A stretch of 32,000 nucleotides of DNA from positions 1,470,001 to 1,502,000 of the forward strand of contig NZ_CP019633.1 in the NCBI RefSeq assembly GCF_001997385.1. The letters run 5' to 3'. Below, piece by piece: positions 5,764 through 29,371 of the stretch (position 1 is the stretch's first letter; every line of letters starts with the position of its first letter). Below the pieces are notes generated by a model, which worked only from the letters and a program-made list of their open reading frames with translations, had not been told where the DNA came from and did not search any database. Position numbers and translations under genes: made by a program. This DNA is from Sedimentisphaera cyanobacteriorum (GTDB lineage: Bacteria; Planctomycetota; Phycisphaerae; Sedimentisphaerales; Sedimentisphaeraceae).

Positions 5764-5786
5764 TGAAAATCGTTCTTGATTTCGAT

Positions 5787-6692
5787 TTAGAAATCTATTG
5801 AGTATGTGATAGCAGCGAACCAGTCGTCATCGACCATATTGCCCATCTCATCATCGAGTGCGAACTGATAGTAAACTGCCGGCTTAACCATACCTGGGCC
5901 GACTACCATCTGTGTACCGAGACCAGTAAGGATTCTCTTGAAACCCTCGTCTGCGGCGTCGTTTCTGCCGTCTTCGTAGATTGCATCAACACAGCCGTGC
6001 AGAGGCATCATATCAATATCCATAGTTGTTTTTATGCCAATAGTGTGCTCAAGATAGTTCACGCCCTGGCCAAATGGAACTTCTTGGTCGAGGTCTGAAT
6101 TCGGGCCGCCGCCGTATCCGCCGGCTTCAAAGATATATGAAAGCCTGTAATGCGGTACAACGTATTCAGAGATCATATTCGGAAATTCAATCCCGAGAGC
6201 AAGCTCCTGCATATCTCTGTCTTCGCCAGACCAGTCGAGTGTGCGCTGATTGATCGGGCCTGCCATTGTGTTTAATGTTTCGTACCTGCTCACATCACCA
6301 AAGTTGTAATAGGTGTAAGACAAGTCAGCATCCATCTGCATTGCATCGCCCTGCATCATAGAATGCTTCATGCCGAAGCTATAATCCCACTGATCGCTCT
6401 GGCCAACCGGATAGCCCGTGTTGGTGTTGGCGAGTCCCTGGAATTGGTCTTCGTAAGCAGAAGCTGATCCTGTGGGCATAACATAACTCACTTCTGCATA
6501 AGCTCCGCTTTCTTGATGAGCAACATTCAATGTAGTCTTAACCGCAGGCCTGTCATCGTACATGTCAAAGCCATGCCATAAGTACTTGCTCATAAAGGTA
6601 GAGCTGACATTAAACTCGAAATCCTCCGCAGCACCGGCCAGCGATGCGAGGACAACTACCGCAAGAATAGATACTAGTTTTGTAATTTTCAT
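5787..6692 (-). CDS. putative outer-membrane beta-barrel protein (TorF/Gcw_chp-like)
   Basis: It has a signal peptide (MKITKLVSILAVVVLASLAGAA), an alternating-hydrophobic C-terminal strand ending in Phe (ITYSIDF), and an N-terminal pattern NVSSTFMSKYLWHGFDMYDDRPAVKTTLNV resembling the Gcw_chp/TorF family opening. The family call is tentative. Confidence 0.75.
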   Translation of the reverse strand: MKITKLVSILAVVVLASLAGAAEDFEFNVSSTFMSKYLWHGFDMYDDRPAVKTTLNVAHQESGAYAEVSYVMPTGSASAYEDQFQGLANTNTGYPVGQSDQWDYSFGMKHSMMQGDAMQMDADLSYTYYNFGDVSRYETLNTMAGPINQRTLDWSGEDRDMQELALGIEFPNMISEYVVPHYRLSYIFEAGGYGGGPNSDLDQEVPFGQGVNYLEHTIGIKTTMDIDMMPLHGCVDAIYEDGRNDAADEGFKRILTGLGTQMVVGPGMVKPAVYYQFALDDEMGNMVDDDWFAAITYSIDF

Positions 6693-6807
6693 AATTTATT
6701 CCCTGTCTAAAGTTACTAACAACAGTTTATACGCACTTGTAAAAGCTATTATTTAGCATGCTCCACATTTGCGAGCTAAACAAGTTTCAAGTTTCCTATT
6801 ATTCCCA

Positions 6808-9800
6808 CTAGAATTCATCGTCAGTTGATTGAGAATCAGTAACAGTGCCTGAAGGATCAGAACCGACAATTCCGATACTTCCGCCTTCATAGGTTCCGCT
6901 GAATACGCAGTTGTCAACAGTGCCTCTGTTGGTTCCAATAGCCCAGCCGACAACTTCGCCAATACCCAGACCAGCATCAGAGCTGCAGCCGGTAATCAGG
7001 CCTCTGTTTTCGCCAACAAACGAACCAACGAATTTATCGCCATCAACAATGCCGCTTACTGAACAGTCTTTGATAGTGCTGTCTGCAAAGTAGCCTGCAA
7101 TACCGCCAACTACGTTCCGGCCTGTTACATCAACATTGAAATTCAAGTACTCTATGAGAGCCCCGTCTGATACTACAGCAAACAGACCTACGTAATCCAG
7201 TCCCGCAGCATTAATCTGATAAGAGAGTGTTGCGTTGGTTTCAGAGTACAGATGACCGGAAAACGGTACAGTAAGCGGGTTGGTTAAAGGATTAGTTCCA
7301 AAATCAACATCGCCGTTTACTATGAAGTGATCTGAAGGATTGTCGATAATCTTCTGCCAGTCAGTAGGATCATCAATTATCCAAGGGTCTTTTTCAGTGC
7401 CGTCTTCATCTTCCTCAGCGGGACCTTCTTCATACTGCGCGGTTACTGTCAAGTCGCTTGTAACATTATCGAAAGCTGTGTCCCAGCCGTCAAACTGCCA
7501 GCCCACTATAGGAGTAACTGTTGGGGCCGCTGCAGCGTCGCCGTATTCTACGGTTTGCACTGCCTGCCCGGCAGTTATCAATCCTTTATTGCCCGGCATA
7601 AATGTTACAGTAAACTCAGCAGTCTGATACTGAGCAGTAACTGTTAAATCGCTTGTAACGTTATCGAAAGCTGTATCCCAGCCGGTGAATTCCCAGCCGG
7701 CATCAGGAGTTACAGTGGGCTCAGCTGCAGCCTGTCCGTGCTGGACGATCTGCGAATCATCGCCTGCTGTAATGCTTCCGTGAGCTCCCGGAAGGAAGTC
7801 AACGGTGTAACCGGTAACTTCATACTGAGCTGTTACTGTCAGGTCAGAAGATACGTTGGTAAAGTCTGTGTCCCAGCCGGTGAATGTGTAGCCTGCATCA
7901 GCTGATACAGCAGGCTCTACAGCATCGCCGCCTGACGGGACTGTCTGAAGCTCATCGCCTGAAGTAATTTGACCGTTAGCTCCAGGATTGAATACTACTG
8001 TATAAGTTACATCGGTGTACTGAGCTGTGATATTGCGGTCTGAGATAACGTTCTCGAAGCTTCCGTCCCAGCCGGTGAATTCCCAGCCCTGGTTTGCTAT
8101 AACGAGCGGCTCAGAAGCATCCTCGCCTAAATCTACCGTTTGGTCTACGTCGCCCTGAAGCGTTCCGTTGGCTCCGCCCCAGAAGTTCACTGTGTAGGAA
8201 TCTGCCTGCTCGCCTGAAACCGTAAGCTCTTCAAGAGAGGTTACGTTTCCTATTTGAGCATCGGCCTGGAAGTCGAGCGTTTCATTAATATCATACACAG
8301 TATCAGTTGCTGCGTCATAAACCTTGAATATCAGGCCTGTAAATGAATCTTCGTCGCTGAAAATAGTAAGCGGGAAGTATTTCGTTCCTGATGGATTCGC
8401 TGCCACTTCTGCCACACCTGCAATATTTCCTGATGGAGTTATTGCAGTGAGAAGGCTTCCGTCCGGCTGAGCTATTGGTACGCCGCCCTGTGTAACTTTA
8501 GCGTACAACTGCATCTGGTTCTGCAGGCCGCTCGGGGACTGCCAGTCCGGAGCGTTCTCGCCGATAGTGTACACCTGAAGCGTGAGAACATTACCAAGAT
8601 CGGTGTCTGCCTCGAAGTCCGGCCTCTGTATGATCTCATAAACCTGATCAGCAGCAGCATCGTAAACCTTCAGCCCCATACCCGGAACCGAGGTTTCATC
8701 GCTGAATACCACCAGCTGGAAGTGATCGTCAGTAGGCCCTGCTACTACTTCATCTGTAACACCGGCTATCTGGCCGGCAGGTGTCCAAGCAGAGAGCTCA
8801 CTATTATTAGCTGTTGCAATCTGGTCTCCGTTCTGGTCAACAACCTTGGCGTAAACCTTCATGCTGTTCATCAGCCCCGTAGGATTCTGCCAGTCCGGCA
8901 CGTTAACCGGCATACCGGCATCTGTGCTGTAAACCTGAAATGTAACAACATTGCCCAGCTCGGTATCCTTCTGGAAATCAACCGTATGAACAATATTGTA
9001 AATTTTATCAGAATCTGCATCGTAAACCTTCAGACTCATATCCTCAACAGAGTTTTTATCGCTGAATATAACGAGCTGGAAGTGATTACCTGCTGGTCCG
9101 AGGATAACTTTATCTGTAGCACCTGCAATAGTGCTTGGGTTATCCGGAGTCCAAGCGGAGAGCTCGCTGCCGTTTGATGCTGCAATCTGATCGCCGTTTT
9201 CATCAACGATTTTCGCATAAACCTTCATCTGGTTTGAAAGCCCCAGAGGAGCACTCCAGTTCGGTTTATTGTTCACAGCAGTCTCGATAGACATCGCTTC
9301 AAGCGGTGAAACCTGATGTGTATAGCTGAAGCCCTGAGCTTTAGATACGTTGAATTTATATCCAACACCCGGCTCGAGCGTATCGAGAGTTCCGTACCAC
9401 TGATTTCCGTAGTACTGAGCAACCTCACCATTCGGTGCTATAATCTGATCCAAATCCTGAACATCAAGATGCTGGAAGGCATCCGCTATAGGCATGCTCT
9501 GGTTCTGGAAGAACGGCAGCCAGTTCCAGCCCTGATAAAGATTCATTACTCCTTCAGGACCTACCTCATTTCCGGAGACTTCAAATGTACCGCCGTTTGC
9601 GCTGTAAAGCACATACATTCTGGTAGGTACAATATTCTGAATCGTTCCGTACCACTCTCCGTTGAAATACTGAGCGGTCTTGCCGTTAGAGGCTGTAATG
9701 CTGTCGAAGTCTTCAACGATCTGTTCGTAACCTTCCATTACATTTGCAAGGCTCTTGTCTTCAGGGAGAACTGGGAATGAAATCCAGTTGTAGCCCTGAA

Positions 9801-12800
9801 CGAGATTGTATGTAAAGCTCTCTTCGAAGCTCTTGAGCCAGTTATTGCTGAACAGATAGAAATCGCCGTTGTCAACCCATTGGTTGCTGTCTATATCGCC
9901 GTACTGATCGCCTGCAAACAGCGCTGCTGCTGTATCGCTTGCCAGCGAGCCTTCTGCAGTAAGATAGGATTCCATCAGTATTGCAAGATCATCTGTACCT
10001 ACATACTTATCGCCGTTGAAATCTGCATCAGCAGGTTCGGGCTCGGGCTGGAGTGAATATGCAGCAGTAAGCTCCATATTTTCAGTAACGTTCTGGAGGG
10101 CGGCAAGTGAATACCTTGTATCGTTATTATACCAGCCTTCAAACCTGTACTGGAAGTCCGGCACGAGCGTTGGAAGCTCTGCGGCCTCACCTTCATCTAC
10201 CTGCTGGCTTGCGCCGGAGAGTATCTCGCCGTAATCGCCCGCATAGAAATTAACAGTATAAATATCAGGCAGTTCGCTGTAGATTGCAGTTACAGTCAAG
10301 TCGCTTGTAACATTATCGAAAGCAACATCCCAGCCGGCAAACTCCCAGCCTTCGTTAGCTTCGATTGTAGGCTCAGCTGCATCTTCGCCTTCGTAAACAG
10401 TCTGCACTGCGTCGCCTGAGGTAATAGTACCGTTGGCGCCCGGCATGAAGGTTACAGTATATGTTATCTGCTCATACTGAGCTGTAACTGTTAAATCGCT
10501 TGTAACATTATCGAAAGCAACATCCCAGCCGGTGAACTCCCAGCCTTCGTTTGCTTCGATTGTAGGCTCAGCTGCATCTTCGCCTTCATAAACGGTCTGA
10601 ACTGAGTCCCCAGCGGTTATGCTCCCGTTAGCTCCTGAGTCAAATGTTACTGTGTACTGAGGTATTTCGGTATAAGTTGCAGTTACAGTTAAATCGCTTG
10701 TAACATTATCGAAAGCAACATCCCAGCCGGTGAACTCCCAGCCTTCGTTTGCTTCGATTGTAGGCTCAGCTGCATCTTCGCCTTCATAAACGGTCTGAAC
10801 TGAGTCCCCAGCGGTTATGCTCCCGTTAGCTCCTGAGTCAAATGTTACTGTGTACTGAGGTATTTCGGTATAAGTTGCAGTTACAGTTAAATCGCTTGTA
10901 ACATTATCGAAAGCAACATCCCAGCCGGTGAACTCCCAGCCTTCGTTTGCTTCGATTGTAGGCTCAGCTGCATCTTCGCCTTCATAAACGGTCTGAACTG
11001 AGTCCCCAGCGGTTATGCTCCCGTTAGCTCCTGAGTCAAATGTTACTGTGTACTGCGGTATTTCGGTATAAGTTGCAGTTACAGTTAAGTCGCTTGTAAC
11101 ATTATCAAAGGCTGTATCCCAGCCGGCAAACTCCCAGCCGGCATCAGCTTCAACCGTTGGAGCTATCGCTGCGCCGCCGTAAGCAACGGTCTGCTCGGTA
11201 TCGCCTGAGGTTATAGTTCCGTTAGCTCCTGGGTCAAATGTTACTGTGTACTGCGGTATTGCGGTATAAGTTGCAGTTACAGTTAAATCGCTTGTAACAT
11301 TATCGAAAGCTGTATCCCAGCCGGCAAACTCCCAGCCTTCGTCTGCTTCTACAGTCGGAGCTGTCGCTGCGCCGCCGTAAGCAACGGTCTGCTCGGTATC
11401 GCCTGAAGTTATAGTACCGTTGGCGCCCGGCATAAAGGTTACTGTGTAAATCTCTTCTGTGTACTCTGCAGTAACGGTAATATCAGACGTTACGTTTGTA
11501 AAGTCTGTGTCCCAGCCTGTGAACTCCCAGCCTGCATTTGCAGTAACTGTAGGAGCATCTGCATCTTCGCCTTCGTAAACAGTCTGCACTGCGTCGCCTG
11601 AGGTTATAGTTCCGTTAGCTCCTGGGTCAAATGTTACTGTGTACTGCGGTATTGCGGTATAAGTTGCAGTTACAGTTAAGTCGCTTGTAACATTATCGAA
11701 AGCTGTGTCCCAGCCGGCAAACTCCCAGCCTTCATCTGCTTCTATTGTTGGAGCTGTCGCTGAATCGCCTTCTTCAACTTCCTGAACTTCATCGCCGGCT
11801 GTTATTGTTCCGTGATCGCCCGCATCGAATGTAACAGTGTATGTTGCAGCCTCAGCAGCTATCTGCTTTTCAACAGGTGTAAATATGTTTCCAACTGTCT
11901 CGTCAGAAATAAATTCAAAAGTTCCCTGTATATCGTAAATTTCATCTTCCGCGGCATCGTAAACTTTAAGTGTCATCCCGCTAACGGTGGACTCATCACT
12001 GAATACTACAAGAGGGAAGATTCTCTTCGTTGGTCCATCTGTTACATCTGAAACCCCTGCAATTTCTCCTCCCGGGGTCCAAGCAGAAAGCAGACTGCCG
12101 TCTGCGACGGCAATCTGCTGTTCATTTTCGTCAACCACGTAAGCCGTGATTGTCATTTTGTTTTTAAGCCCTGTTGGTGATGTCCAGTCAGGCGCCCCAG
12201 CTGGAAGCTGTTCTGAAAGCTCGGGCTCAGACTGGCTCGCTGGAGCTAAGGCACCATCAAAAAAAAAAGACTGTGCTGTAGCTACGTTAAGTTTATACCC
12301 CACACCGGGCACTAACGACTGCAAAGTACCATACCACTGTCCCTGATAGTACTGAGCGGTCTGTCCGCTTGGAGCAACGATTGTATCGAAATCGCTGAGC
12401 TGGGCATTCTGGAATGCGTCATCCAGACTTATAGGATCCTGAAGCGTAGAGCCGATCCAGTTCCAGCCTGATACAAGCGTTATTTCAGTTTCGGGGTCAA
12501 CAGGGAAACCAGTTACATCAAAGCTTCCGCCTGCCCCGCTGTTAAGTATGTACATCTTGCCCGGCTCAATAATATCGAGAGTTCCATACCAAGTTCCCTG
12601 ATAGTATTGAGCAGTTTCGCCTGCTGCGGATACAATAGAATCAAAGTCCTGAGCGATATTGCTGTAGTCAGCGAGTACGTTTTCAAGACTGTCATCATCA
12701 GGCAGAACAGGGAATGAAATCCAGTTGTATCCCTGATCCAGATTGTATGTCATAGAAGCTCCGCCAATCTGGAAAGTGAGAACCGGATAAGCTGCTCCCA

Positions 12801-14265
12801 TAGACCAAATTTGAGCGAAATTGAAATTCGGGAAATTGCTTTGCTGCGCCATCTGGGTTGAATTAAGAGCTGTTGAGTTTGTCTCGTTCTGGTCGCCCCA
12901 GCCGATAAACTCGCTTACGCCTGCCAAGTCGCTGTCGTAATGTGCGCTGTCAAGGCTTCCGCCATTGTTCCAGCCGATTACTGCGCCGAGGTATCCTTCG
13001 CCGCCCTGCTTGTCCATTATAGTACCCGCATAGTGTACGTACTGAACAGGGGCTTCGCCGCCGTTTTGGTCGTCTGTTTCGTTCAGGCCTACAACGCCGC
13101 CGAGTACTGTGTTATCCCCGTTAGTCTCATTTGCTACAACATTGCCTGCTGCATAGCAGTTCATTACCATACCGCTTGAATTGCGTCCGGCAACTCCGCC
13201 TGCATAGCCGAGGTATCCTGTTTCAACGTAACCCAGTGAAGCAGCTTCGCTTATTTCTGCGCTCTCGCCGGCAGTGGATATGCCGCTGTAGCCCACAATA
13301 CCGCCTGTATCGCTGTAGCGTCCGCCGATAACAGAGGCCTGTTCAGCCAAAACAGCCTGCTGAACGCTGCTGTTTAGAGACTGGCCTACAATACCGCCGA
13401 CTATTGAGCCGTTAAACGGTGCAGATGGTACAGTAACACTTCCGCCTGCCATTTCCGCGCCGGTTACTGCGCTGGACTCAAGATAGCCTACAACGCCGCC
13501 TGCTACCACACCGCTTGCATCAGCGATGATTTCTGCATTAACGCTCAGGTTGGTATATTCAGAGCCGTTATAAGCGTATCCCACGATACCGCCTGCAATG
13601 GTAGGATTCTCTGAATCGTCAATGCTCGCAAAGCCGGAATCTGCCACATCCATACTTCCCATGAATGAGCATTCGTCAATCGAACCGGTGGACTGTCCTG
13701 CTATACCGCCTGCGTTGCAGCCGTAGTCTGTTGCGATAGACACCTCAGACTGGCAATTCTGCAGAGTACCTGCGTTTGAAGCAACGATACCGCCAACAGC
13801 AAGGCCTTTGTCCTGGGCATCTATTGAACCAGCCGCAGAGCAGTTCTCGATAGTACCGCCGTTGTTAAAGCCGGCAATACCAGCTACAAATTCCCAGTTT
13901 CCGCTGTAAGCGCTGAGGTCGTAGTCGAGGTTTACGTTTAAGTTTTTGACAACTCCCTGCTGGCCGATCTCTTCGAAAAGAGCATCGTCGCCGGTTAGGG
14001 TGCCTTGATAGGAAACGTCTATAGTATTTCCGTCTCCATCAAAATTACCATTAAAACTACCGCCAATAACAAAGTCAACACCTGTGATGCTGCTTGTAAG
14101 AACGAAATAATCGCCGGAGTTAGGATTGTTCGTCGCTATCTCCTGCAAATCGTTCGTATTGGCAACCTGATAAGGATTAGCCTGTGAACCATCGCCGCCA
14201 GAGAAGGCAAGTGCGATAGAGGCCAGAGCCATAATACTGAGAGAAACTAATTTGAATCTTTTCAT
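6808..14265 (-). CDS. giant secreted modular surface protein (GLUG regions + Listeria-Bacteroides repeats + dockerin-like segment), 2485 aa
   Basis: This is an uninterrupted 7.46-kb ORF. I placed the start at ATG 14265 (GGAGA 5 nt upstream; MKRFKLVSLSIMALASIALA is a Sec signal peptide) rather than the first ATG at 14301. The domain order read from the translation is as follows. GLUG-motif region (about 12922-13899). Module A (12256-12750). Module B (11878-12195). Nine tandem Listeria-Bacteroides/InlB-B-type repeats (YTVTF..GWEFxGWD..VTAxY; 10057-11841). Dockerin-like double EF-hand (9835-10023). Module A (9322-9816). Three copies of module B (8230-9267). Four more Listeria-Bacteroides repeats (7432-8196). 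A second GLUG-type region (6811-7402). I recognised no LPXTG, PEP-CTERM, T9SS CTD or RTX motif at the C-terminus (...TVTDSQSTDDEF). Confidence 0.9.
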   Translation of the reverse strand: MKRFKLVSLSIMALASIALAFSGGDGSQANPYQVANTNDLQEIATNNPNSGDYFVLTSSITGVDFVIGGSFNGNFDGDGNTIDVSYQGTLTGDDALFEEIGQQGVVKNLNVNLDYDLSAYSGNWEFVAGIAGFNNGGTIENCSAAGSIDAQDKGLAVGGIVASNAGTLQNCQSEVSIATDYGCNAGGIAGQSTGSIDECSFMGSMDVADSGFASIDDSENPTIAGGIVGYAYNGSEYTNLSVNAEIIADASGVVAGGVVGYLESSAVTGAEMAGGSVTVPSAPFNGSIVGGIVGQSLNSSVQQAVLAEQASVIGGRYSDTGGIVGYSGISTAGESAEISEAASLGYVETGYLGYAGGVAGRNSSGMVMNCYAAGNVVANETNGDNTVLGGVVGLNETDDQNGGEAPVQYVHYAGTIMDKQGGEGYLGAVIGWNNGGSLDSAHYDSDLAGVSEFIGWGDQNETNSTALNSTQMAQQSNFPNFNFAQIWSMGAAYPVLTFQIGGASMTYNLDQGYNWISFPVLPDDDSLENVLADYSNIAQDFDSIVSAAGETAQYYQGTWYGTLDIIEPGKMYILNSGAGGSFDVTGFPVDPETEITLVSGWNWIGSTLQDPISLDDAFQNAQLSDFDTIVAPSGQTAQYYQGQWYGTLQSLVPGVGYKLNVATAQSFFFDGALAPASQSEPELSEQLPAGAPDWTSPTGLKNKMTITAYVVDENEQQIAVADGSLLSAWTPGGEIAGVSDVTDGPTKRIFPLVVFSDESTVSGMTLKVYDAAEDEIYDIQGTFEFISDETVGNIFTPVEKQIAAEAATYTVTFDAGDHGTITAGDEVQEVEEGDSATAPTIEADEGWEFAGWDTAFDNVTSDLTVTATYTAIPQYTVTFDPGANGTITSGDAVQTVYEGEDADAPTVTANAGWEFTGWDTDFTNVTSDITVTAEYTEEIYTVTFMPGANGTITSGDTEQTVAYGGAATAPTVEADEGWEFAGWDTAFDNVTSDLTVTATYTAIPQYTVTFDPGANGTITSGDTEQTVAYGGAAIAPTVEADAGWEFAGWDTAFDNVTSDLTVTATYTEIPQYTVTFDSGANGSITAGDSVQTVYEGEDAAEPTIEANEGWEFTGWDVAFDNVTSDLTVTATYTEIPQYTVTFDSGANGSITAGDSVQTVYEGEDAAEPTIEANEGWEFTGWDVAFDNVTSDLTVTATYTEIPQYTVTFDSGANGSITAGDSVQTVYEGEDAAEPTIEANEGWEFTGWDVAFDNVTSDLTVTAQYEQITYTVTFMPGANGTITSGDAVQTVYEGEDAAEPTIEANEGWEFAGWDVAFDNVTSDLTVTAIYSELPDIYTVNFYAGDYGEILSGASQQVDEGEAAELPTLVPDFQYRFEGWYNNDTRYSLAALQNVTENMELTAAYSLQPEPEPADADFNGDKYVGTDDLAILMESYLTAEGSLASDTAAALFAGDQYGDIDSNQWVDNGDFYLFSNNWLKSFEESFTYNLVQGYNWISFPVLPEDKSLANVMEGYEQIVEDFDSITASNGKTAQYFNGEWYGTIQNIVPTRMYVLYSANGGTFEVSGNEVGPEGVMNLYQGWNWLPFFQNQSMPIADAFQHLDVQDLDQIIAPNGEVAQYYGNQWYGTLDTLEPGVGYKFNVSKAQGFSYTHQVSPLEAMSIETAVNNKPNWSAPLGLSNQMKVYAKIVDENGDQIAASNGSELSAWTPDNPSTIAGATDKVILGPAGNHFQLVIFSDKNSVEDMSLKVYDADSDKIYNIVHTVDFQKDTELGNVVTFQVYSTDAGMPVNVPDWQNPTGLMNSMKVYAKVVDQNGDQIATANNSELSAWTPAGQIAGVTDEVVAGPTDDHFQLVVFSDETSVPGMGLKVYDAAADQVYEIIQRPDFEADTDLGNVLTLQVYTIGENAPDWQSPSGLQNQMQLYAKVTQGGVPIAQPDGSLLTAITPSGNIAGVAEVAANPSGTKYFPLTIFSDEDSFTGLIFKVYDAATDTVYDINETLDFQADAQIGNVTSLEELTVSGEQADSYTVNFWGGANGTLQGDVDQTVDLGEDASEPLVIANQGWEFTGWDGSFENVISDRNITAQYTDVTYTVVFNPGANGQITSGDELQTVPSGGDAVEPAVSADAGYTFTGWDTDFTNVSSDLTVTAQYEVTGYTVDFLPGAHGSITAGDDSQIVQHGQAAAEPTVTPDAGWEFTGWDTAFDNVTSDLTVTAQYQTAEFTVTFMPGNKGLITAGQAVQTVEYGDAAAAPTVTPIVGWQFDGWDTAFDNVTSDLTVTAQYEEGPAEEDEDGTEKDPWIIDDPTDWQKIIDNPSDHFIVNGDVDFGTNPLTNPLTVPFSGHLYSETNATLSYQINAAGLDYVGLFAVVSDGALIEYLNFNVDVTGRNVVGGIAGYFADSTIKDCSVSGIVDGDKFVGSFVGENRGLITGCSSDAGLGIGEVVGWAIGTNRGTVDNCVFSGTYEGGSIGIVGSDPSGTVTDSQSTDDEF
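7432..8196 (-). repeat. 4 tandem coding repeats (Listeria-Bacteroides repeat units, about 64 aa each)
   Basis: The translation shows four consecutive units: YTVNFWGGANG...ITAQY, YTVVFNPGANG...VTAQY, YTVDFLPGAHG...VTAQY and FTVTFMPGNKG...VTAQY. They are divergent at the DNA level. Confidence 0.8.
8230..9267 (-). repeat. 3 tandem copies of an unassigned ~115-aa module (module B)
   Basis: Unit starts lie at about 9267 (KPNWSAPLGL), 8905 (VPDWQNPTGL) and 8555 (APDWQSPSGL). Each contains SAWTP/TAITP, FxLVxFSDE and LKVYDAxxDxxY motifs. A fourth copy is at 11878-12195. Confidence 0.75.
10057..11841 (-). repeat. tandem array of 9 units with a ~198-bp (66-aa) period encoding Listeria-Bacteroides repeats
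   Basis: The landmark TTAA(A/G)TCGCTTGTAAC recurs at 10491, 10689, 10887 and 11085, exactly 198 bp apart. The translation gives 9 consecutive YTVTF...VTAxY units, aa 821-1415 counted from the 14301 ATG. Confidence 0.92.
10491..11084 (-). repeat. three consecutive 198-bp units, nucleotide-identical except for one base
   Basis: Segment 10491-10688 equals 10689-10886 base for base. Segment 10887-11084 differs only in TACTGCGG versus TACTGAGG. The encoded protein units are identical (EIPQYTVTFDSGANGSITAGDSVQTVYEGEDAAEPTIEANEGWEFTGWDVAFDNVTSDLTVTATYT). Confidence 0.95.
12259..12268 (-). repeat. A10/T10 homopolymer inside the giant CDS
   Basis: Ten consecutive A on the plus strand give T10 on the coding strand (TCT TTT TTT TTT GAT), encoding S-F-F-F-D at the end of the first module A. 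Confidence 0.95.
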
Positions 14266-14302
14266 TTTAATCTCCATGCATCTATTTATAACAAACAGCA
14301 TA

Positions 14303-14935
14303 TTAGTTGGAATTCTTTTTTCTTAATCTTCTCGCCGCGAGTCCTGCAGCTCCTGCCGCAAGCAGAGTTACGGTAGCAGGCTCAGGAATGATCGGATTCG
14401 GATTCACATCAGATGGTCGTCTGTAATCAGGGGCGCTGACGTTAGTAACATCAGGTTTTGAAAGTGTACCCGGGCTTTCAGCCGCTGCGAGATAACTTTC
14501 TACACTGCTGCTGTAGTCAGTACTGCTGATTGAATCGTTAAATCCGATATTTGGAGCAGGTATGCTTCGGCTCCTTCCGCCTTCTTCCAAACTTTTAATT
14601 CCTACCTCAACAGCTTCGTCTGATTCAGCAACCTGAAATGACGCTACCACATACCTCGGTCCATCCATAACCACTCTGGTAGATCTGCTGTCCGGGTTTT
14701 CCACATCGCCAATCCAGCACACAAACTCATAGCCTTTATAGGGCTGAGCAGCGATAGTAGCCACCTCACCTTCTTCATAGTAGTGAGCCTGACTCACTGA
14801 AGGGGTTACCACGCCGGCCTGTGCGAGTGTCGAGTCGGTGTAGAGCATGTAGCGTTTTGCCATCACAGTTCCGCTTGCCAGCAGAACCGCAATCAAAGCC
14901 AAGACACTACGGCCAAATAAACTTTTTGCACTCAT
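14303..14935 (-). CDS. PEP-CTERM-anchored small secreted protein with a divergent InlB-B-repeat-like domain
   Basis: The C-terminus IIPEPATVTLLAAGAAGLAARRLRKKNSN shows the PEP motif, a hydrophobic helix and a basic cluster, which together form the PEP-CTERM exosortase sorting signal. The N-terminal signal peptide is MSAKSLFGRSVLALIAVLLASGTVMA. I placed the start at ATG 14935 (GAGG upstream), giving 210 aa. The central segment YYEEGEVATIAAQPYKGYEFVCWIGDV...RYVVASFQ resembles a B-repeat. Confidence 0.85.
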   Translation of the reverse strand: MSAKSLFGRSVLALIAVLLASGTVMAKRYMLYTDSTLAQAGVVTPSVSQAHYYEEGEVATIAAQPYKGYEFVCWIGDVENPDSRSTRVVMDGPRYVVASFQVAESDEAVEVGIKSLEEGGRSRSIPAPNIGFNDSISSTDYSSSVESYLAAAESPGTLSKPDVTNVSAPDYRRPSDVNPNPIIPEPATVTLLAAGAAGLAARRLRKKNSN

Positions 14936-15046
14936 TTTCAACCTCTTACAGATTAGTATAATTTCGTTTGCTTTCACTATACAACTTTTTAAACTGCTAT
15001 TCAAGCAAAAAATTTTAAAAAGCTGATTTTTATTTTACTAAAAATT

Positions 15047-15076
15047 ATTATAATTCCTTCATCAAAGGATTTTCAA
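15047..15076 (-). promoter_or_regulatory. candidate sigma70 promoter for the PEP-CTERM/giant/barrel unit
   Basis: On the minus strand, TTGAAA (15071-15076) is followed by an 18-bp spacer and a perfect TATAAT (15047-15052). This lies about 110 nt upstream of ATG 14935 in an AT-rich divergent intergenic region. Confidence 0.4.
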
Positions 15077-15122: not shown

Positions 15123-15803
15123 ATGCAAGAAAAAATATACTCATTTTTCAATTCAGCAGCAAACAGCCTGAACCCCGAGGAATTCTGGGCATTAACGGCC
15201 GCAGAAGCCATTATTCCCCCAATAGTCTATATGACAATAGGGGTTTTGTATTTATGCTGGGGTTGGAAATTTTTTAAAGTTTTAACAGCGGTAACTTTTG
15301 CTATTACTGGTTTATTTCTCGGATTTAAGCTGGGGGAATTACTTGGTAGCCCCGTATTAACAGGGATAATTTTTTCAATAATTTTTTTATTTTTATCATT
15401 TCCAGTACTGAGATTTGCCGTTTCGCTTCTGAGCTGCATTATATTTTCCGCATTGAGCTGTATGTTCTGGATAGAGCAGGGGATGCCTGAGAAGTATATC
15501 ATAGCGGTATTTGTTGCCGGCTTGATCCTCGGAGCAGTCTTAGGCTACTGCCTCTTCAGGGCAGCTATAATAATCATAACCAGCTCTGCTGGGTCGTACT
15601 TCCTGCTTGCAGGGATATGGGCAGTGCTAAGGAAAAGCACCGAGCACACGGGCATAAACGCTGAGGAGCTTTTCAACGAGATCTCCGGCAGCGGGGTATA
15701 TATACTGATGTTTGTTTTGCCTGCTTTGGGAGGGGTATTAATGCAAATGCGAGAATTCCCGCTCCGAGAGAAGAAAAAGGATAAGAAGGAGGAAGAAGAC
15801 TAA
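15123..15803 (+). CDS. polytopic membrane protein of unknown function (DUF4203/TMEM198-like impression)
   Basis: A 226-aa ORF with about 6-7 hydrophobic helices and a charged C-terminal tail (REKKKDKKEEED). I recognised no catalytic motif, and the family call is weak. Confidence 0.7.
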   Translation: MQEKIYSFFNSAANSLNPEEFWALTAAEAIIPPIVYMTIGVLYLCWGWKFFKVLTAVTFAITGLFLGFKLGELLGSPVLTGIIFSIIFLFLSFPVLRFAVSLLSCIIFSALSCMFWIEQGMPEKYIIAVFVAGLILGAVLGYCLFRAAIIIITSSAGSYFLLAGIWAVLRKSTEHTGINAEELFNEISGSGVYILMFVLPALGGVLMQMREFPLREKKKDKKEEED

Positions 15804-20166: not shown

Positions 20167-21927
20167 ATGTACTTGAAGAAGCACAAGCGAAAGAAGAATG
20201 GTAAGATCAATTCCTATTACAGCATAGCGGAGAAGCGTAAGGTTTCTCGCGGGCGTTATGTTGAGAAGATGGTGCTGTATCTTGGTGAAATCTCTGATTC
20301 TCAGAAGAAGTCTTGGCAGAGATCCATTGAGATAATCAACGAGGACAACAAGCCTGTCCGCAAGTCATTATTCGCTTTTGATCAGGACAATCACACACAT
20401 CACGACATAGATACGATTCCGGTAAAGCTCTCAAAGATGAAGCTTAACAACCCCAGAACATTCGGGGACTGCTGGCTCGGCTGCGAGATATGGGATATGC
20501 TGGGATTAGACACCTTCTGGTCGGAGAGGATAGACACTGCCAAATCGCCGGTTGACTATTCCAAAGTTGTAAAATTGCTGACAGTAAACCGTCTTATCAA
20601 GCCCGGAGCGGAGTTTTATGTCCACCGGCACTGGTTCACTCAGACCGCAATGGATGTATTGCTGGGCTGTGAATTTGATGTTGCCGAAAAAAACCGGCTT
20701 TACCGTTGTCTGGACAGGATATTGCCGTATAAAGAAGAGCTTTGTTCTTATTTGAAAGACACATGGCAGATGATGTTCAATCTGGAATATGACATTCTGC
20801 TTTACGATATAACCAGTACTTATTTTGAGGGATTATGCAAAAGCAATCCCAAGGCAAAATTCGGCCACAGCAAAGACCGCAGAGGCGATTGCAGGCAGAT
20901 TCTTATCGCTTTGGTAGTTACCCCTGAGGGATTTCCGATCAATTATGAGATACTCGCCGGCAACACCTCAGAGAGAACAACGCTTAAACCCTTGTTAAAC
21001 AAGATAGAGTCGAAATACGGCAAGGCAGGCAGGTTATGGCTGATGGACAGAGGTATTCCAACAGAAGCTGTGCTGGAGTATATGCGTGATAACGGGATTG
21101 ATTATCTTGTCGGAACGCCCCGTAAGCTGCTGGATGAATTCCAAGAAGAGCTTTCTGTGAAAAGCTGGTTTGATGTAAATGGAATCGTTCGCATAAAGCA
21201 TATAGCCAAAGATGACGAATGCTATATTCTTGCTCGAAGCAAAGAGAGAATGGCTAAAGAACGGGCTATGCGTAAAAGAAAGCTCCGTAATTACTTAGAA
21301 GGACTGGAGAAGTTAAAGAAATGCCGCAGCCGAGATGTTTTTATGCAAAGGCTCGGCAAACTCAAACATCAGGCGGGCAGCTGCCGTAAGTGTGTAACTC
21401 TTACGATTCCCCGAAATAAGGAAAGGATTGAGAAGGGCGAGTTTGATTATAAGTTTGAAGCGAGCAAATATAAAGAAATGATATACCGCGACGGCACATA
21501 CTTTTTGCGTACAAACCAGTCTGGCAAGGATGGTGCAGCCCTGTGGAAGGAATATATGCTTCAGTGCAACGTTGAGCAGGCATTCAGGGAGCTCAAGAGC
21601 GATCTGGGAATTCGTCCTGTCTATCACCATAAGCAAGACAGGGTTGAGGCTCACGTGTTTGTAGCGTTTATGAGCTATTGTTTGCAAGTAACACTGAGGC
21701 ATAAGCTCAGGGCAAGCGCCTGCGGGATGACTGCTCAGGCGGCATTAGCAGCAATGTCTCGGATCCAGATGCTGGATGTTTCATTTGAAACGCAAGACAG
21801 CAGAACTCTGCTTATGCAGAGATATACCGAACCGGAAGACGAACACAAGCTGCTGCTGCAGAAATTGAAGATAGAACTGCCGCCGCAAAAACCTCCGAAA
21901 ATATACAGCGGGAAACTGAAAAAATAA
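20167..21927 (+). CDS. IS1634-family DDE transposase
   Basis: The N-terminus MYLKKHKRKKNGKINSYYSIAEKRKVSRGRYVEKMVLYLGEI is typical of IS1634-type transposases. Candidate DDE residues lie in LLYDITSTYFEG, LWLMDRGIPT and NVEQAFRELKSDLGIRPVYH...EAHVFV. Confidence 0.92.
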   Translation: MYLKKHKRKKNGKINSYYSIAEKRKVSRGRYVEKMVLYLGEISDSQKKSWQRSIEIINEDNKPVRKSLFAFDQDNHTHHDIDTIPVKLSKMKLNNPRTFGDCWLGCEIWDMLGLDTFWSERIDTAKSPVDYSKVVKLLTVNRLIKPGAEFYVHRHWFTQTAMDVLLGCEFDVAEKNRLYRCLDRILPYKEELCSYLKDTWQMMFNLEYDILLYDITSTYFEGLCKSNPKAKFGHSKDRRGDCRQILIALVVTPEGFPINYEILAGNTSERTTLKPLLNKIESKYGKAGRLWLMDRGIPTEAVLEYMRDNGIDYLVGTPRKLLDEFQEELSVKSWFDVNGIVRIKHIAKDDECYILARSKERMAKERAMRKRKLRNYLEGLEKLKKCRSRDVFMQRLGKLKHQAGSCRKCVTLTIPRNKERIEKGEFDYKFEASKYKEMIYRDGTYFLRTNQSGKDGAALWKEYMLQCNVEQAFRELKSDLGIRPVYHHKQDRVEAHVFVAFMSYCLQVTLRHKLRASACGMTAQAALAAMSRIQMLDVSFETQDSRTLLMQRYTEPEDEHKLLLQKLKIELPPQKPPKIYSGKLKK

Positions 21928-24503: not shown

Positions 24504-25307
24504 TTACTTACCCCTAATACCTTTTTCTGCAGCGTCCTGATTCATTTTGCGGATTTTCTCCCGCAGATCTTCCAGCTGCTTATCACTAGCTCCAGGCGGG
24601 AGACTGCCCATCTCAGTTAGAGGGTCTTCAGCTTCCGGGACAAACTGCTGAGTGTTCTGCTGTGGCTTTGTCTGAGAAGTTTCGGGCAGAGCCTTCGACG
24701 AAGAAGAAGCCTGTTTTTCAGCGGGGATCTCGGATTTAAGGATATTCTTGATTGAAGATTTGTGTTCCTTTATTTCGAGCTCTGAAACTGAGCCGTTATT
24801 ATCAAGATATATCGAATCATCGTTGATCTTGCGAATCCTCAAATGGCCAACTTTCTGCCCCTGATAAACCCATTTCTTCCCCTCACCCGGGAGGTCCACA
24901 AAGGCCATTGAAAGCTCTGGTCGGTCTTGATTAACACAAGTTCCCTCAAGCGTAAAACGCACCTTAATCGGCGAGGGCGGCTTAGGCTCCTGCTGTTTTT
25001 TTGGCTGAGGGTCAGGACTCGTGTTTTTTGTTCTGGGCTGTATATTTGAGCGGCTCGCAGTTCTTTTTGGATCAGGCTTTTCAGGCTCTTTTGTGTACTG
25101 CCTTGCCGCCTTAACCAGAGCAGACTCGGAGTTTTGGTCTGAATTGGAAGAATCGGCTTTTGCCTTGAAGTCTTCAGCCACAGAGGCATTTGCAAGAAAT
25201 TCCTGCACTTTCTCGCTCTCAGGAGCGGGCTTTTTGATAAGCATAACCGCCATAACCGCTGAGCCTATCAAAACGAGAAAAGAAAATATTTGAAATAATC
25301 TTAACAT
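24504..25307 (-). CDS. bitopic membrane protein, Pro/Lys/Gln-rich linker plus a small beta domain (function unknown)
   Basis: It has an N-terminal TM segment (FQIFSFLVLIGSAVMAVMLI) and a low-complexity linker. The segment VRFTLEGTCVNQDRPELSMAFVDLPGEGKKWVYQGQKVGHLRIRKINDDSIYLDNNGSVSELEI loosely resembles GspC-HR/PilP-type domains. It ends 5 nt before the UbiA start. Confidence 0.7.
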   Translation of the reverse strand: MLRLFQIFSFLVLIGSAVMAVMLIKKPAPESEKVQEFLANASVAEDFKAKADSSNSDQNSESALVKAARQYTKEPEKPDPKRTASRSNIQPRTKNTSPDPQPKKQQEPKPPSPIKVRFTLEGTCVNQDRPELSMAFVDLPGEGKKWVYQGQKVGHLRIRKINDDSIYLDNNGSVSELEIKEHKSSIKNILKSEIPAEKQASSSSKALPETSQTKPQQNTQQFVPEAEDPLTEMGSLPPGASDKQLEDLREKIRKMNQDAAEKGIRGK

Positions 25308-25350
25308 AATTTTTTCCCGGCTATATTACCAGTTTCAATTTTCTCTATAT

Positions 25351-25379
25351 ATTACAATGATATTAGACAGTGAAGTCAA
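25351..25379 (-). promoter_or_regulatory. candidate sigma70 promoter for the bitopic-protein/UbiA operon
   Basis: On the minus strand, TTGACT (25374-25379) is followed by a 17-bp spacer and TGTAAT (25351-25356). This lies about 45 nt upstream of ATG 25307. Confidence 0.45.
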
Positions 25380-25392
25380 TATTTTGTTTCGG

Positions 25393-25417
25393 ATAAAATA
25401 AAGGTCTGAAACAGCCT
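25393..25417 (-). terminator. probable rho-independent terminator after uvrB
   Basis: On the minus strand the hairpin AGGCTG-TTT-CAG(A)CCT (25402-25417) is followed by TTATTTTAT. It starts 1 nt after the uvrB stop. Confidence 0.5.
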
Positions 25418-25418
25418 T

Positions 25419-27404
25419 CTATTTCTTCTTTTCTATCTTCGGCATTGATTCAAATTCCTTTATCTTGTCGCGCAGCTTGGCGGCCTTTTCGAAATTGAGC
25501 TCTTCTGCCGCTTTCATCATTTCCTTCTCAAGCATAGCGACCATCTCGGTCTTATCATACTCTTTTTCGTCCATAGAAACAGCCTGTCTTGCCGTTTTTC
25601 TCGCTTTCAGTGAGTCCGAGAGGGCTGTTCTGATGGATTTCCTGATCGTTTCAGGTGTGATATTATGCTTTTTGTTATACTCCATCTGAATCTTGCGTCT
25701 TCTCTCGGTTTCATCCATAGCACGTTTCATAGATGGTGTAACCTTATCACCATAGAGGATAACCCTTGAATCCACGTTTCTTGCTGCTCTGCCGATTGTC
25801 TGGATAAGGGAAGTTTCGCTTCTAAGGAAACCCTCCTTGTCCGCATCCATAATTGCCACCATTGCCACCTCCGGAAGGTCGAGCCCTTCTCGAAGCAGGT
25901 TGATCCCTATGAGCACATCAAACTCGCCTTTCCTCAGGTCTCTGAGGATATCCACACGTTCTATAGCATCGATTTCACTGTGCAGATAGCGGCATTTGAT
26001 TTTCTCCTTCTGGAAGAAGTCTGTAAGGTCTTCAGCGAGTCTTTTTGTAAGAACTGTAACCAGAACCCTCTGCCCAGCTTCAACTCTTTCATAAATCTCA
26101 GATTTCACATCGCTTACCTGACTGCTCGCAGGACGCACCTCAACTTTCGGGTCGAGAAGGCCTGTCGGGCGGATAATCTGCTCAACGATTTCCCCGCCGG
26201 TAAGGCCGAGCTCATAATCGCCGGGGGTTGCGGAAACGTAAACCGTTCTGCCCGGACGCTGCTCGAATTCATCAAAACGCAGGGGCCTGTTGTCCATTGC
26301 GCTTGGCAGACGGAAGCCGTGGTCAACGAGCACCTGCTTTCTGTTTCTATCTCCTGCATACATCGCTCTAACCTGCGGGAGGGTAACGTGGGATTCATCA
26401 ATAAACATAATGAAATCCTTCGGGAAATAATCGAGCAGGGTGTAGGGCTTAGCCCCCGGGCGCAAGCCGGCAAGATGCCTTGCATAGTTCTCGATTCCGC
26501 TGCAGAAACCAACCTCGGCTATCATCTCCATATCGTATTTTGTGCGAGCCTCGAGCCTCTGGGCTTCAAGGAGCTTTCCCTGCTCTCTAAACTCTGCGAG
26601 CCTTTGGTCGAGCTCCTGCTGTATAGATTCAAGAGCAGTTTGAACCCTGTCCTGAGCCATAATGTAGTGCGCAGCGGGGTAGATGAAAACCTGCTGCTCT
26701 TCTGCGAGAGCCTCGCCGGATACGGGATTTATATACTTTATGCTCTCAATCTCATCGCCGAAGAATTCCACTCGGACAGCGTAAGACTCGTAAGAAGGCC
26801 AAACCTCCACCACATCGCCCCGAACCCTGTATGTCCCTCGAGTGAAATCTATATCATTTCGTTCATAGAGGACATCTGCAAAGCGTCCGAGAAGATCGTC
26901 GCGTTCGATAATATCGCCTTTCACCACAGGCACAACGTTCTTTTTGTACTCCTCCGGCGAGCCTAAGCCGTAGATGCATGAAACGCTGGATACCACAATC
27001 ACATCGTCTCGGGTGAGAAGGCTTGTTGTTGCTGCAAGGCGGAGACGGTCGAGATCGTCGTTTCTGCTTGCATCCTTCTCTATGTATATATCCCGCTGAG
27101 GTATATAGGCCTCAGGCTGGTAATAATCGTAGTAGCTGACGAAATACTCAACCGCATTTTCCGGAAACAGCTCCTTCATTTCCTCATAAAGCTGTGCTGC
27201 AAGAGTTTTGTTGTGCGAGATAATAAGCGCAGGCTTCCTCACCGTTTCAATCACATTTGCCATTGTGAAGGTTTTGCCCGTACCCGTAGCGCCGAGGAGA
27301 ACCTGATGGCGGCTGCCTGAGCTTATCCCTTCCACAAGCTTTCGGATTGCCTCGGGCTGGTCGCCTGAAGGGTTGTATTGACTTTTTAAGTTGAAGTTGT
27401 CCAT
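25419..27404 (-). CDS. uvrB: excinuclease ABC subunit B
   Basis: The 661-aa protein begins [44 protein letters not shown] (Walker A). It carries helicase motifs and a C-terminal UVR domain ([24 protein letters not shown]). Confidence 0.96.
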
Positions 27405-27430
27405 ATTATCTCTGCATGCTCACGAATCAG

Positions 27431-27931
27431 CTATTTCACAGTGTATGTAAAGCGAAGGGTAGCCTTCCAGTCGTCCTCTGCGTCATTAGAACGCAGGTCG
27501 AGAGTGTCAATTTCGAGTCCGGGCCATGTTTCGAGAAACTCATTGAGAAATGAAGTTAGGCTCATCATATCAACGGTTTTTATTATCATAGTTGCCCCCT
27601 GAGTCTGCCGGCTGCTGCGTTTTATAACTGCCTCAGTTCGAATATCGTAATCTGAAGGGCCTATTCCATGAGCCCTTGCAAGCTTATCGACAACCGTTGT
27701 GTACCGGAATTTGCCGACCTCTTTGCGTGCCTCTGAAAATTTCAGCCGGGCAGGATCAAGCTCGTATATCTTTTCACAGTTTGCCAGCACCTTTTTCCCT
27801 GTTTTAATGCTGCTGTTAAGGGACATTTCATTTTTGGGCACTAAGAAAAACTGCGCCGCAGCATACCACACAGCAGCCGCTGCGAGGATACCGAAAGAAA
27901 TAAAATGTATTTTAATTTTCTTATTTTCCAT
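27431..27931 (-). CDS. type II secretion GspM/PilO-like assembly protein
   Basis: A 166-aa protein with a single N-terminal TM segment (ISFGILAAAAVWYAAAQFFLV) followed by a small alpha/beta domain. It sits directly after the GspL-like gene with a 9-nt gap. The assignment rests on architecture and position only. Confidence 0.55.
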   Translation of the reverse strand: MENKKIKIHFISFGILAAAAVWYAAAQFFLVPKNEMSLNSSIKTGKKVLANCEKIYELDPARLKFSEARKEVGKFRYTTVVDKLARAHGIGPSDYDIRTEAVIKRSSRQTQGATMIIKTVDMMSLTSFLNEFLETWPGLEIDTLDLRSNDAEDDWKATLRFTYTVK

Positions 27932-27940
27932 ACCGCCCCA

Positions 27941-29341: not shown

Positions 29342-29371
29342 TTTTCAGCTCCAATTTAATATAGCAGCTTA

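Follow-up and report, generated by a model that had tools for sequence, protein, structure and literature searches.

The three genes considered here lie side by side in a window of 32,000 nucleotides (the whole stretch of DNA that was analysed) from the planctomycete Sedimentisphaera cyanobacteriorum (contig NZ_CP019633.1, positions 1,470,001 to 1,502,000). All are encoded on the minus strand and, read in the direction of transcription, they specify a small protein with a PEP-CTERM sorting signal (14303–14935), a giant secreted repeat protein (6808–14265) and a predicted outer membrane β-barrel (5787–6692). Gene starts were placed from ribosome-binding sites and homologues. The open reading frame (ORF) of the small gene spans 14303–15004; its actual start is the ATG at 14935, which has AAGAGG ahead of it and gives a protein of 210 aa, equal in length to its 96% identical homologue P0006. 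The ORF of the giant spans 6808–14301; translation probably begins at the ATG at 14265, which has GGAGA ahead of it and corresponds to the start residue of homologous giants. With the starts at 14935 and 14265 the two gaps measure 37 nt and 115 nt, the values given in the original prediction, which had proposed from the sequence alone that these same-strand genes form an undescribed surface-display module. The closest proteins are those of Sedimentisphaera salicampi (94–96% identity), where the locus has the same layout and the assembly breaks inside the repeats of the giant.

The 210-aa precursor of the small protein consists of a signal peptide, one B-repeat, a Ser/Thr/Pro-rich stalk and a PEP-CTERM tail. 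Its signal peptide, assigned by inspection (MSAKSLFGRSVLALIAVLLASGTVMA/KRY), lies in a hydrophobic window at aa 1–26 and ends in an A-x-A-type cleavage site that is conserved in 15 homologues. The InlB-type B-repeat domain (aa 40–102; 14630–14818, minus strand) matches Flg_new_2 (PF18998) with an E-value of 1.3e-10 and 41.5 bits, against a cut-off of 23.6, and is followed by a stalk of about 80 residues. The sorting signal (IPEPATVTLLAAGAAGLAARRLRKKNSN; 14306–14389, minus strand) displays the PEP motif, the hydrophobic stretch and the basic cluster in full view (IPEPATVTLLAAGAAGLAARRLRKK), and at aa 183–203 it lies above the curated cut-offs of both PF07589 (23.7 versus 20.7 bits) and TIGR02595 (18.8 versus 16), in agreement with the anchor that had been predicted for the first gene product. 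Fourteen homologues of 207–228 aa (48–96% identity) are conserved along their full length and keep several motifs of the stalk (KSLEEGG, RPGT, YRPP, NPNPxIPEPAT); judged from these alignments, the conservation of the small protein, stalk included, exceeds what a bare sorting tag would need. Searches of PDB sequences with the small-protein family returned nothing, and a cohesin match was absent too. The kinship that had been suggested between its B-repeat and those of the giant holds at the level of the Pfam family and does not extend to any closer relationship (27–29% identity, E 0.2–0.4); a recent copying of a giant repeat into the small gene is ruled out, the pairwise similarity being non-significant.

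The giant comprises 2485 aa (263 kDa, pI 4.05), and its sole hydrophobic stretch is the Sec signal peptide. Neither Pfam nor NCBIfam scans of the giant found a sorting or anchor domain, so that its description as Sec-secreted and anchorless stands. The mature chain opens with a GLUG region (aa 23–496; 12778–14199) in which five GLUG stretches reach an E-value of 2.9e-15 and 56 bits, against a Pfam cut-off of 20.5 bits. It continues with two copies of an unnamed β domain, D1 (aa 497–675; 12241–12777), recognised by self-comparison, one copy of another, D2 (aa 685–800; 11866–12213), and nine Flg_new/InlB B-repeats of about 66 aa each (aa 805–1408; 10042–11853). At the DNA level, the nine-repeat block contains a 198-bp tandem array at 10284–11748, and two of its 120-aa stretches are 100% identical. 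Next comes a segment of the dockerin-like, Ca-binding type (aa 1412–1480; 9826–10032), whose Dockerin_1 score of 20.7 bits lies below the cut-off of 22.9 with half of the model covered; a weak sequence match to PDB entry 8x39 at this segment is the only PDB match of the giant. Self-comparison then identifies a second pair of D1 domains (aa 1483–1650; 9316–9819) and three D2 domains (aa 1666–2012; 8230–9270), followed by four Flg_new B-repeats (aa 2023–2282; 7420–8199) and a C-terminal GLUG region ending in ...STDDEF (aa 2290–2485; 6811–7398; E 1.6e-5, 25.5 bits), all of these features on the minus strand. The 13 B-repeats together account for the strongest family matches of the giant, to Flg_new_2 (PF18998, 1.2e-56, 189 bits) and Flg_new (PF09479, 2.9e-51, 171.9 bits), with ten stretches each. 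No enzymatic domain could be recognised.

The modules of the giant differ in how they are conserved. The N-terminal GLUG region evolves fast (40% identity to the orthologue in locus L003, 28–29% to those in L007 and L009), and the dockerin-like segment is found at the same position in these three loci at 33–45% identity. The C-terminal tail differs in every lineage, reading ...VVTGGE in S. salicampi and ...ISGNIK in L003 and being replaced by another β domain in L007 and L009, and thus does not qualify as a conserved signal for sorting or docking; this rules out the C-terminal Phe of the window giant as a β-signal or docking tail. The replacing domain in the latter two giants (L007:15210–15959, L009:15327–16076; ...RWTYSKG...VWVWNFALNN) is β-rich, stands where the GLUG region would be and has no match in Pfam or NCBIfam. 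Domains D1 and D2 likewise match nothing in Pfam or PDB; an AlphaFold2 model of aa 497–805 built from four sequences is all-β with a mean predicted local distance difference test score (pLDDT) of 61, too weak for the two domains to be placed, and Foldseek found no match to it in PDB at E < 0.001. A word-indexed search for the D1-D1-D2 arrangement recovered two short proteins only, P0020 and P0021. Their tails (...WYTLEGFKIGRRP..GIYIHNGKKV) resemble by eye the C-terminal sorting domain of the type IX secretion system (T9SS), a likeness for which NCBIfam gave no confirmation; if it were true, the same surface modules would be T9SS-sorted in another phylum.

The third gene encodes a 301-aa precursor with a mature chain of about 280 aa ending in ...YSIDF. 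Its AlphaFold2 model, built from six sequences (pLDDT 70.1, predicted TM-score 0.68), has 12 core strands, which fits the barrel of roughly 280 aa ending in Phe that had been proposed.

Recurrence of the trio and its cargo

The complete trio occurs in the window, in S. salicampi, in the metagenome-assembled genome (MAG) CA_2019_NHSR_9, in Sedimentisphaeraceae JB056 and in GCA_036681025.1. The original prediction proposed co-occurrence of the three genes in other genomes as a check, and they do co-localise, in at least four Sedimentisphaeraceae-like lineages, with flanks that have changed on one or both sides. In the window and in S. salicampi the trio is bordered by an EPSP synthase gene and a gene for a transmembrane protein on the one side and by an aldo-keto reductase gene on the other. 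The Phycisphaerae MAG NHSR_9 has EPSP synthase, small gene, giant (2521 aa), barrel and UDP-glucose dehydrogenase in this order; in JB056 (locus L007) the trio lies between NrdR and an 87-aa gene with a Mur ligase, and in GCA_036681025.1 (L009) between a LexA-like/ImpB cassette and an 88-aa gene, again with a Mur ligase. Across these loci the gap between small gene and giant ranges from 21 to 64 nt and that between giant and barrel from 38 to 115 nt. Giant orthologues following the small gene in L003, L007 and L009 measure 1753–2526 aa, those of JB056 and GCA_036681025.1 being 1753 or 1801 aa long, and two short contigs (L087, L107) carry the small gene followed by the GLUG-type N-terminus of a giant. 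The 87–88-aa ORF behind the barrel (L007:17052–17315, L009:17259–17525) is conserved between these two lineages, has no family match and is missing from the window.

Sequence divergence across the trio is considerable and uneven. Between the window and the closer lineage, NHSR_9, even the EPSP synthases are only 61% identical, the small proteins (P0008 in NHSR_9) 65%, the barrels (P0003) 48%, the N-terminal GLUG regions 40%, the D1 domains 57% and the B-repeats 62%. The corresponding values for JB056 are 53% for the small protein, 26% (E 2e-26) for the barrel, 28% for the GLUG region, 49% for D1 and 64% for the B-repeats, the EPSP synthase neighbour being unshared; GCA_036681025.1 stands at 51% for the small protein and 24% (E 9e-21) for the barrel. 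JB056 and GCA_036681025.1, which likewise share no EPSP synthase gene at the locus, are 74% identical in the small protein, 52% in the barrel and 46% in the GLUG region. The barrel and the GLUG region are therefore the two fast parts and seem to change in step (48/40, 26/28 and 52/46%), although three comparisons give no more than a hint of this.

A revealing variant of the cargo occurs in the nearest relative outside Sedimentisphaera (sample ERZ18242372). Here, the small gene (contig L104) is followed by three GLUG proteins: one of 806 aa with GLUG motifs only and no Dockerin_1 match, a second of 1717 aa with 16 PASTA domains, GLUG motifs and a dockerin-like tail, and the beginning of a third GLUG protein. 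Another contig from the same sample with similar coverage, L001, starts inside a PASTA and GLUG protein (two PASTA domains) and continues into the barrel gene. Whatever protein is encoded between the small gene and the barrel, the GLUG region is the sole module that it shares with all the others. If L104 and L001 are joined and bracket three GLUG proteins, GLUG rather than the B-repeats or D1/D2 would be the constant feature of the cargo. The secreted PASTA and GLUG proteins (L104:3887–9040, L001:3–1691) occupy the position of the B-repeat giant, an unusual setting for PASTA domains.

Two metagenomic lineages carry tyrosine recombinase genes (Phage_integrase plus a SAM-like domain) directly upstream of the small gene (L107:1–1008, L112:2–934), which suggests mobility of the module or phase variation. 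An invertible promoter was considered and dropped, the sequences upstream in L107, in L112 and in the window containing weak AT-rich inverted repeats only.

It could be argued that the linkage reflects no joint mechanism at all, and that envelope genes simply move as one on a segment that is mobile or prone to rearrangement, or have a strong promoter in common. The recombinases in L107 and L112, the LexA-like/ImpB cassette upstream in L009 and the insertion sequence elements near the trio in the window (20167–21927) and in S. salicampi are all in keeping with such a segment, and the lineages concerned are fairly close relatives. Yet order, orientation and short spacers persist where the barrels have diverged to 24–26% identity, both bracket genes appear to be retained in L104 and L001 where the cargo has been swapped, and the linked barrels have a structural change in common, which together make a linkage without joint function very unlikely.

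The barrel family and its enlarged loops

The N-terminal signature of the barrel (SKYLWHGFDMY), its size, its signal peptide and its Phe-ended barrel recall the TorF/Gcw_chp family (TIGR02001, PF09694), and P0001 is annotated at NCBI as a TorF family putative porin. The window barrel scores 21.2 against Gcw_chp (cut-off 24) and 19.0 against TorF (cut-off 47.15), its sole match in NCBIfam, with matches that cover the N-terminal 50–70 residues only; being below both curated cut-offs, it is by the curated rule not a member. Since 18 of the 61 members of the barrel family match PF09694 (best E 3.6e-11) and no other family, the barrels are best described as a distant TorF/Gcw_chp branch. A search of PDB sequences with the family found nothing. 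Foldseek returned FapF, OmpG and autotransporter barrels at TM-scores of 0.44–0.49, which is a generic result; a KdgM-type porin was also among the structural matches.

How specific is the linkage to GLUG genes? Relatives of the barrel (19–27% identity) turned up at 74 loci in a genome scan, nearly all in Planctomycetota MAGs, and HMMER searches with the small protein and giant of the window recovered partners within 10 kb in only two of these loci, both of the trio lineage. The others recur in housekeeping settings, downstream of a gene for a PALP enzyme (~462 aa), in divergent orientation to MgsA or ahead of the gene for a B12-binding radical SAM enzyme; examples among the stand-alone loci L014–L086 are L018:8563–9954, L023:8366–9781 and L020:9551–11011, and tandem pairs occur in L026, L030 and L035. 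An exhaustive profile search extended the family to 536 cluster representatives, nearly all of 250–290 aa.

The linked barrels differ from these relatives in their loops. In the model, long loops of low confidence occupy aa 74–100 (L2), 132–160 (L3) and 190–211. Loop L2 comprises 22–30 aa in every giant-linked barrel of both sub-clades, against 9 aa in 64 of 72 stand-alone barrels, where the maximum is 16. The window group has an enlarged L3 in addition, the other sub-clade an enlarged L4 and L5. Within the window group, conservation of these loops roughly equals that of the strands, with 76% identity in L3 between the window barrel and P0003. By standard barrel topology both termini would be periplasmic and the long loops extracellular. 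On the periplasmic side the linked barrels resemble their stand-alone relatives, the mature chain beginning at strand 1 and the turns measuring 2–8 aa; without a periplasmic module, any added function would have to sit outside the cell, and the lack of such a domain argues against a dedicated exporter. A neighbour-joining tree places all linked barrels in one clade (86% bootstrap). The original prediction had counted it as evidence against itself if the barrel grouped with general porins in unrelated contexts, and this is partly the case: the family is mostly stand-alone and in unrelated contexts, while the linked copies are set apart by L2 and by the tree.

Two other roles for the barrel need to be weighed against these observations. 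The first is that of a porin, either for diffusion or specific for a substrate, whose expression is coupled to that of a surface binding protein: the giant would capture a polymer or a partner cell, the barrel would take up small solutes, and no complex would form. The ancestry in a putative-porin branch (18 of 61 members matching PF09694), the roughly 70 stand-alone relatives in housekeeping synteny, the narrow length range of the 536 representatives and the presence of small specific porins with 12–14 strands (OmpG, KdgM-type) among the structural matches all speak for a porin. A plain porin would need neither strict adjacency to a GLUG gene through rearranged flanks nor a conserved, enlarged L2 in the linked copies alone; moreover, hydrolase or transporter genes do not accompany the trio, and the giant lacks a recognisable enzymatic domain. 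We consider this role doubtful.

The second is that of a dedicated outer membrane translocator, with unfolded GLUG proteins threaded through or alongside the barrel, folding outside, and the small protein tethering the product; it would resemble autotransporter, TpsB or FapF systems except that the barrel is separate and POTRA-less. Such a device would suit a Sec-dependent cargo of 263 kDa, whose N-terminal repeat region could fold outside the cell and act as a ratchet; the barrel gene directly follows the cargo in every complete locus, the size and strand number resemble those of autotransporter and FapF barrels, the top Foldseek matches, and in L104 and L001 three GLUG proteins seem to share a single barrel. 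Those matches are generic, however (TM-scores of 0.44–0.49, with OmpG equal in score), and the barrel offers no periplasmic recognition domain, short periplasmic turns and no Pfam match to autotransporter, POTRA/ShlB or two-partner secretion (TPS) domains. The distinguishing trait of the linked barrels lies in loops predicted to be extracellular, the C-terminus of the giant, the part that is sited in the pore in autotransporters, is unconserved, and the relatives of the barrel are ordinary stand-alone barrels. A translocator is therefore unlikely.

A possible dock for anchorless GLUG proteins

The trio can be classed as a surface-protein operon with accessory envelope proteins, each part of which belongs to a known family or is distantly related to one. 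Beyond this, we favour a reading in which it forms a lineage-specific operon that supplies anchorless GLUG proteins with an outer membrane dock and an exosortase-sorted tether, and we give this a probability of roughly 0.35. Joint function is favoured by the order kept through rearranged flanks, by the specificity of the linkage and by the clade-specific outer loop; docking is favoured over a dedicated export pore because the linked barrels lack a periplasmic module and what is new about them is found on their predicted outer face. Given an anchorless giant and GLUG as the constant element of the cargo, we propose that the barrel loops, the exosortase-sorted small protein or both hold on to the GLUG region.

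The following mechanism can be envisaged, with surface location, exosortase processing, export route and every protein–protein contact as we infer them. All three proteins would cross the cytoplasmic membrane via Sec, and the β-barrel assembly machinery (BAM) would place the barrel in the outer membrane. An exosortase encoded elsewhere would cleave the small protein at its PEP-CTERM signal and leave it tethered on the outer face of the envelope, presenting its single B-repeat as a head on the Ser/Thr/Pro-rich stalk (~80 residues). The giant might reach the surface through a general route, for which genes resembling those of a type II secretion system (T2SS), some 10 kb away, offer a candidate. 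There it would be retained non-covalently, its N-terminal GLUG region binding the barrel loops, the head of the small protein or both, and its B-repeats, D1 and D2 domains would extend outward as an adhesin or binding stalk.

Several observations weigh against the docking proposal. The enlarged loops are modelled at a pLDDT below 50, so their position follows from standard barrel topology only, and L3 and L4 are unlike between the two linked sub-clades. About 70 barrel relatives of 258–285 aa stand alone in housekeeping contexts, and relatives of the small protein (30–37% identity) are widespread in metagenomes without a giant or a barrel; each accessory protein can, by this token, work alone. 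The raw distance of the L007 barrel to the stand-alone barrel of L014 (1.44) is smaller than that to the window barrel (1.69), and long branches may inflate the bootstrap value, which makes the shared L2 insertion a sounder argument than the neighbour-joining clade. The join between L104 and L001 is deduced from the fact that the end of the one and the start of the other match consecutive parts of one GLUG unit, with zero DNA overlap. As far as the searches reach, the trio appears confined to a narrow Sedimentisphaerales clade, and with all trio-bearing lineages in it the number of independent observations is small. Finally, the domain scan of the window, which covered ORFs of at least 120 aa, found no exosortase (EpsH/Xrt).

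The distant relatives of the small protein are themselves small B-repeat and PEP-CTERM proteins that are often encoded by two to four consecutive genes. Arrays of this size, with small genes of ~190–235 aa, were seen in L089:9265–10495, L095:8035–9286, L096:6613–8700 and L093:3719–5063; each contains at least one or two B-repeat and PEP-CTERM proteins distantly akin to the small protein, and none has a giant or barrel.

How does the trio compare with known sorting and secretion systems? Planctomycetes are among the phyla that carry the PEP-CTERM/exosortase (EpsH, Xrt) sorting system (Haft et al. 2006, PMC1569441). All three elements of the C-terminal signal of this system are present in the small protein, above the Pfam and TIGRFAM cut-offs; PEP-CTERM proteins, however, are not known as partners of a specific giant and a specific barrel. 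Such proteins are expected together with an exosortase gene in the same genome, usually alongside several PEP-CTERM paralogues. From the TorF/Gcw_chp barrels the linked clade differs, apart from its scores, in its enlarged loops (L2, L3 and L4) and its fixed place behind GLUG genes.

The original prediction held that the locus fits neither two-partner secretion nor type I secretion (T1SS), autotransport or T9SS, and the domain content bears this out. Like two-partner systems (type Vb), the trio places the gene of a giant Sec-dependent repeat protein beside that of an outer membrane barrel. TpsB proteins are 16-stranded Omp85 barrels with POTRA domains. The barrel of the trio, in contrast, has 12 strands and about 280 aa, without POTRA, and the cargo gene comes first; POTRA, ShlB and Bac_surface_Ag gave zero matches in the scanned ORFs, and the TPS (haemagglutination activity) domain is absent from the giant, whose N-terminal 478 aa match GLUG only. 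Classical autotransporters (type Va) and FapF share with it a similar barrel size and strand number and provide the top structural matches. Unlike type Va passengers and their barrels, giant and barrel are separate polypeptides with a 115-nt spacer between their genes, and the barrel has no linker helix or plug and no PF03797 match; FapF matches at a TM-score of 0.44–0.48 and 10–11% identity, the trio barrel lacks an N-terminal extension, and the window holds no fap genes. RTX adhesins of the T1SS type are set apart by the Sec signal of the giant, by the absence of RTX matches and by the lack of ATP-binding cassette (ABC) and membrane fusion protein (MFP) genes in the window. More generally, a TpsB/POTRA partner, an ABC/MFP pair and an autotransporter domain were all missing among the scanned window ORFs. 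T9SS cargo is distinguished by its sorting domain, to which the giant has no match, its C-terminus being an unconserved GLUG region.

Two further systems offer partial parallels. In cellulosome-type anchoring, too, an anchorless multi-domain protein with a dockerin segment would stand beside a small sorted surface protein, but the dockerin match of the giant is partial and sub-threshold, and neither small protein nor barrel has a cohesin match. In GlyGly-CTERM/rhombosortase systems that work with a T2SS, such as that of Vibrio VesB, the protein is processed at the inner membrane and retained at the surface after export. GlyGly-CTERM is, like PEP-CTERM, a C-terminal tripartite sorting signal (PMC3237569), and T2SS-like genes are present in the window; signal and enzyme family are different, however, and the sorted protein is itself the cargo there.

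A wider version of the proposal makes the linked barrel, POTRA-less, 12-stranded and TorF-derived, the outer membrane part of an undescribed export-and-anchoring route for GLUG proteins, which would let through or capture a separately encoded giant and employ an exosortase-processed B-repeat protein; this we regard as decidedly unlikely. There is a modest chance that the locus represents a new anchoring or export route. The trio as a system is absent from the Pfam and NCBIfam families, and in the literature on Sedimentisphaera, planctomycete PEP-CTERM proteins, TorF/Gcw_chp and GLUG we found no paper describing it.

The locus bears on the question of how the numerous giant surface proteins of planctomycetes are exported and kept in place. 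In 2006, Haft et al. (PMC1569441) left open the destination and the binding partners of PEP-CTERM proteins, and we found no later paper that settles either point for Planctomycetes. The trio offers a compact and conserved test case in a culturable genus, combining a PEP-CTERM protein, a class of GLUG cargo and a barrel with a clade-specific loop. A three-protein complex, if true, would be a new way to display anchorless giants on a diderm cell and would provide the first functional handle for the TorF/Gcw_chp barrel family; an export-and-anchoring route, if true, would give PEP-CTERM proteins their first defined molecular partner. If no complex forms, we are dealing with an ordinary surface-protein operon, and the interest of the locus is local.

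Transcription signals and genomic surroundings

Co-transcription of the three genes is predicted and likely. An intrinsic terminator follows the barrel gene, as had been proposed: a 13-bp stem with seven G-C pairs and a T-run at 5764–5736 (minus strand), of which S. salicampi retains the stem with an altered loop. A G+C-rich 14-bp hairpin inside the giant coding region (12089–12119, minus strand), also flagged by the terminator scan, has a poor T-run and is probably incidental. The promoter-like sequence TTGAAA-18-TATAAT of the original prediction does lie upstream of the small gene (15047–15076, minus strand; 11 of 12 matches), but it is not conserved, both hexamers being altered in S. salicampi (CTGAAA/TATAAC), and its function is therefore doubtful. 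A second promoter-like site, TTGAAT-17-TATAGT (14976–15004, minus strand; 9 of 12 matches), about 40 nt upstream of the small gene, is better conserved than the first, with an unchanged -35 hexamer and TATATT as its -10 hexamer in S. salicampi. Promoter-like matches are common in this region (26, versus 14.4 ± 3.8 in shuffles).

The 115-nt spacer between giant and barrel (6693–6807, minus strand) differs from that of S. salicampi by a handful of substitutions, while third-position changes are numerous in the adjoining barrel ORF; over the 1.1 kb aligned, overall identity is 91%. The terminator scan found none in the spacer, and an internal promoter or translation signal is possible there. A regulatory RNA was considered and rejected, the spacer folding no better than shuffles (z = -0.54), and Rfam gave zero matches across the entire window, spacer included.

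Most neighbours of the trio in the window have housekeeping functions, among them the aldo-keto reductase with Fe-S domains, the EPSP synthase and an indolepyruvate oxidoreductase; a sulfatase is also present. Divergent from the small gene lies the gene of a 226-aa membrane protein (15123–15803, plus strand) with a weak TM7S3/TM198-like match, which overlaps the 3′ end of the EPSP synthase gene by 4 nt, falls in a stretch of lower G+C (0.416), is kept in S. salicampi and is missing from the NHSR_9 locus. The T2SS-like genes, which also resemble those of type IV pili, extend over 24504–31970 (minus strand), ~10 kb from the trio, and include a weak GspC-like ORF, a GspK-domain ORF, a pseudopilin-like ORF carrying an N-methylation motif and three ORFs that match nothing in Pfam; uvrB (25419–27404) sits within this run. 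An IS4-type DDE transposase gene (586 aa; 20167–21927, plus strand) is found 5 kb upstream of the trio, and the matching upstream region of S. salicampi contains rve-type transposase genes.

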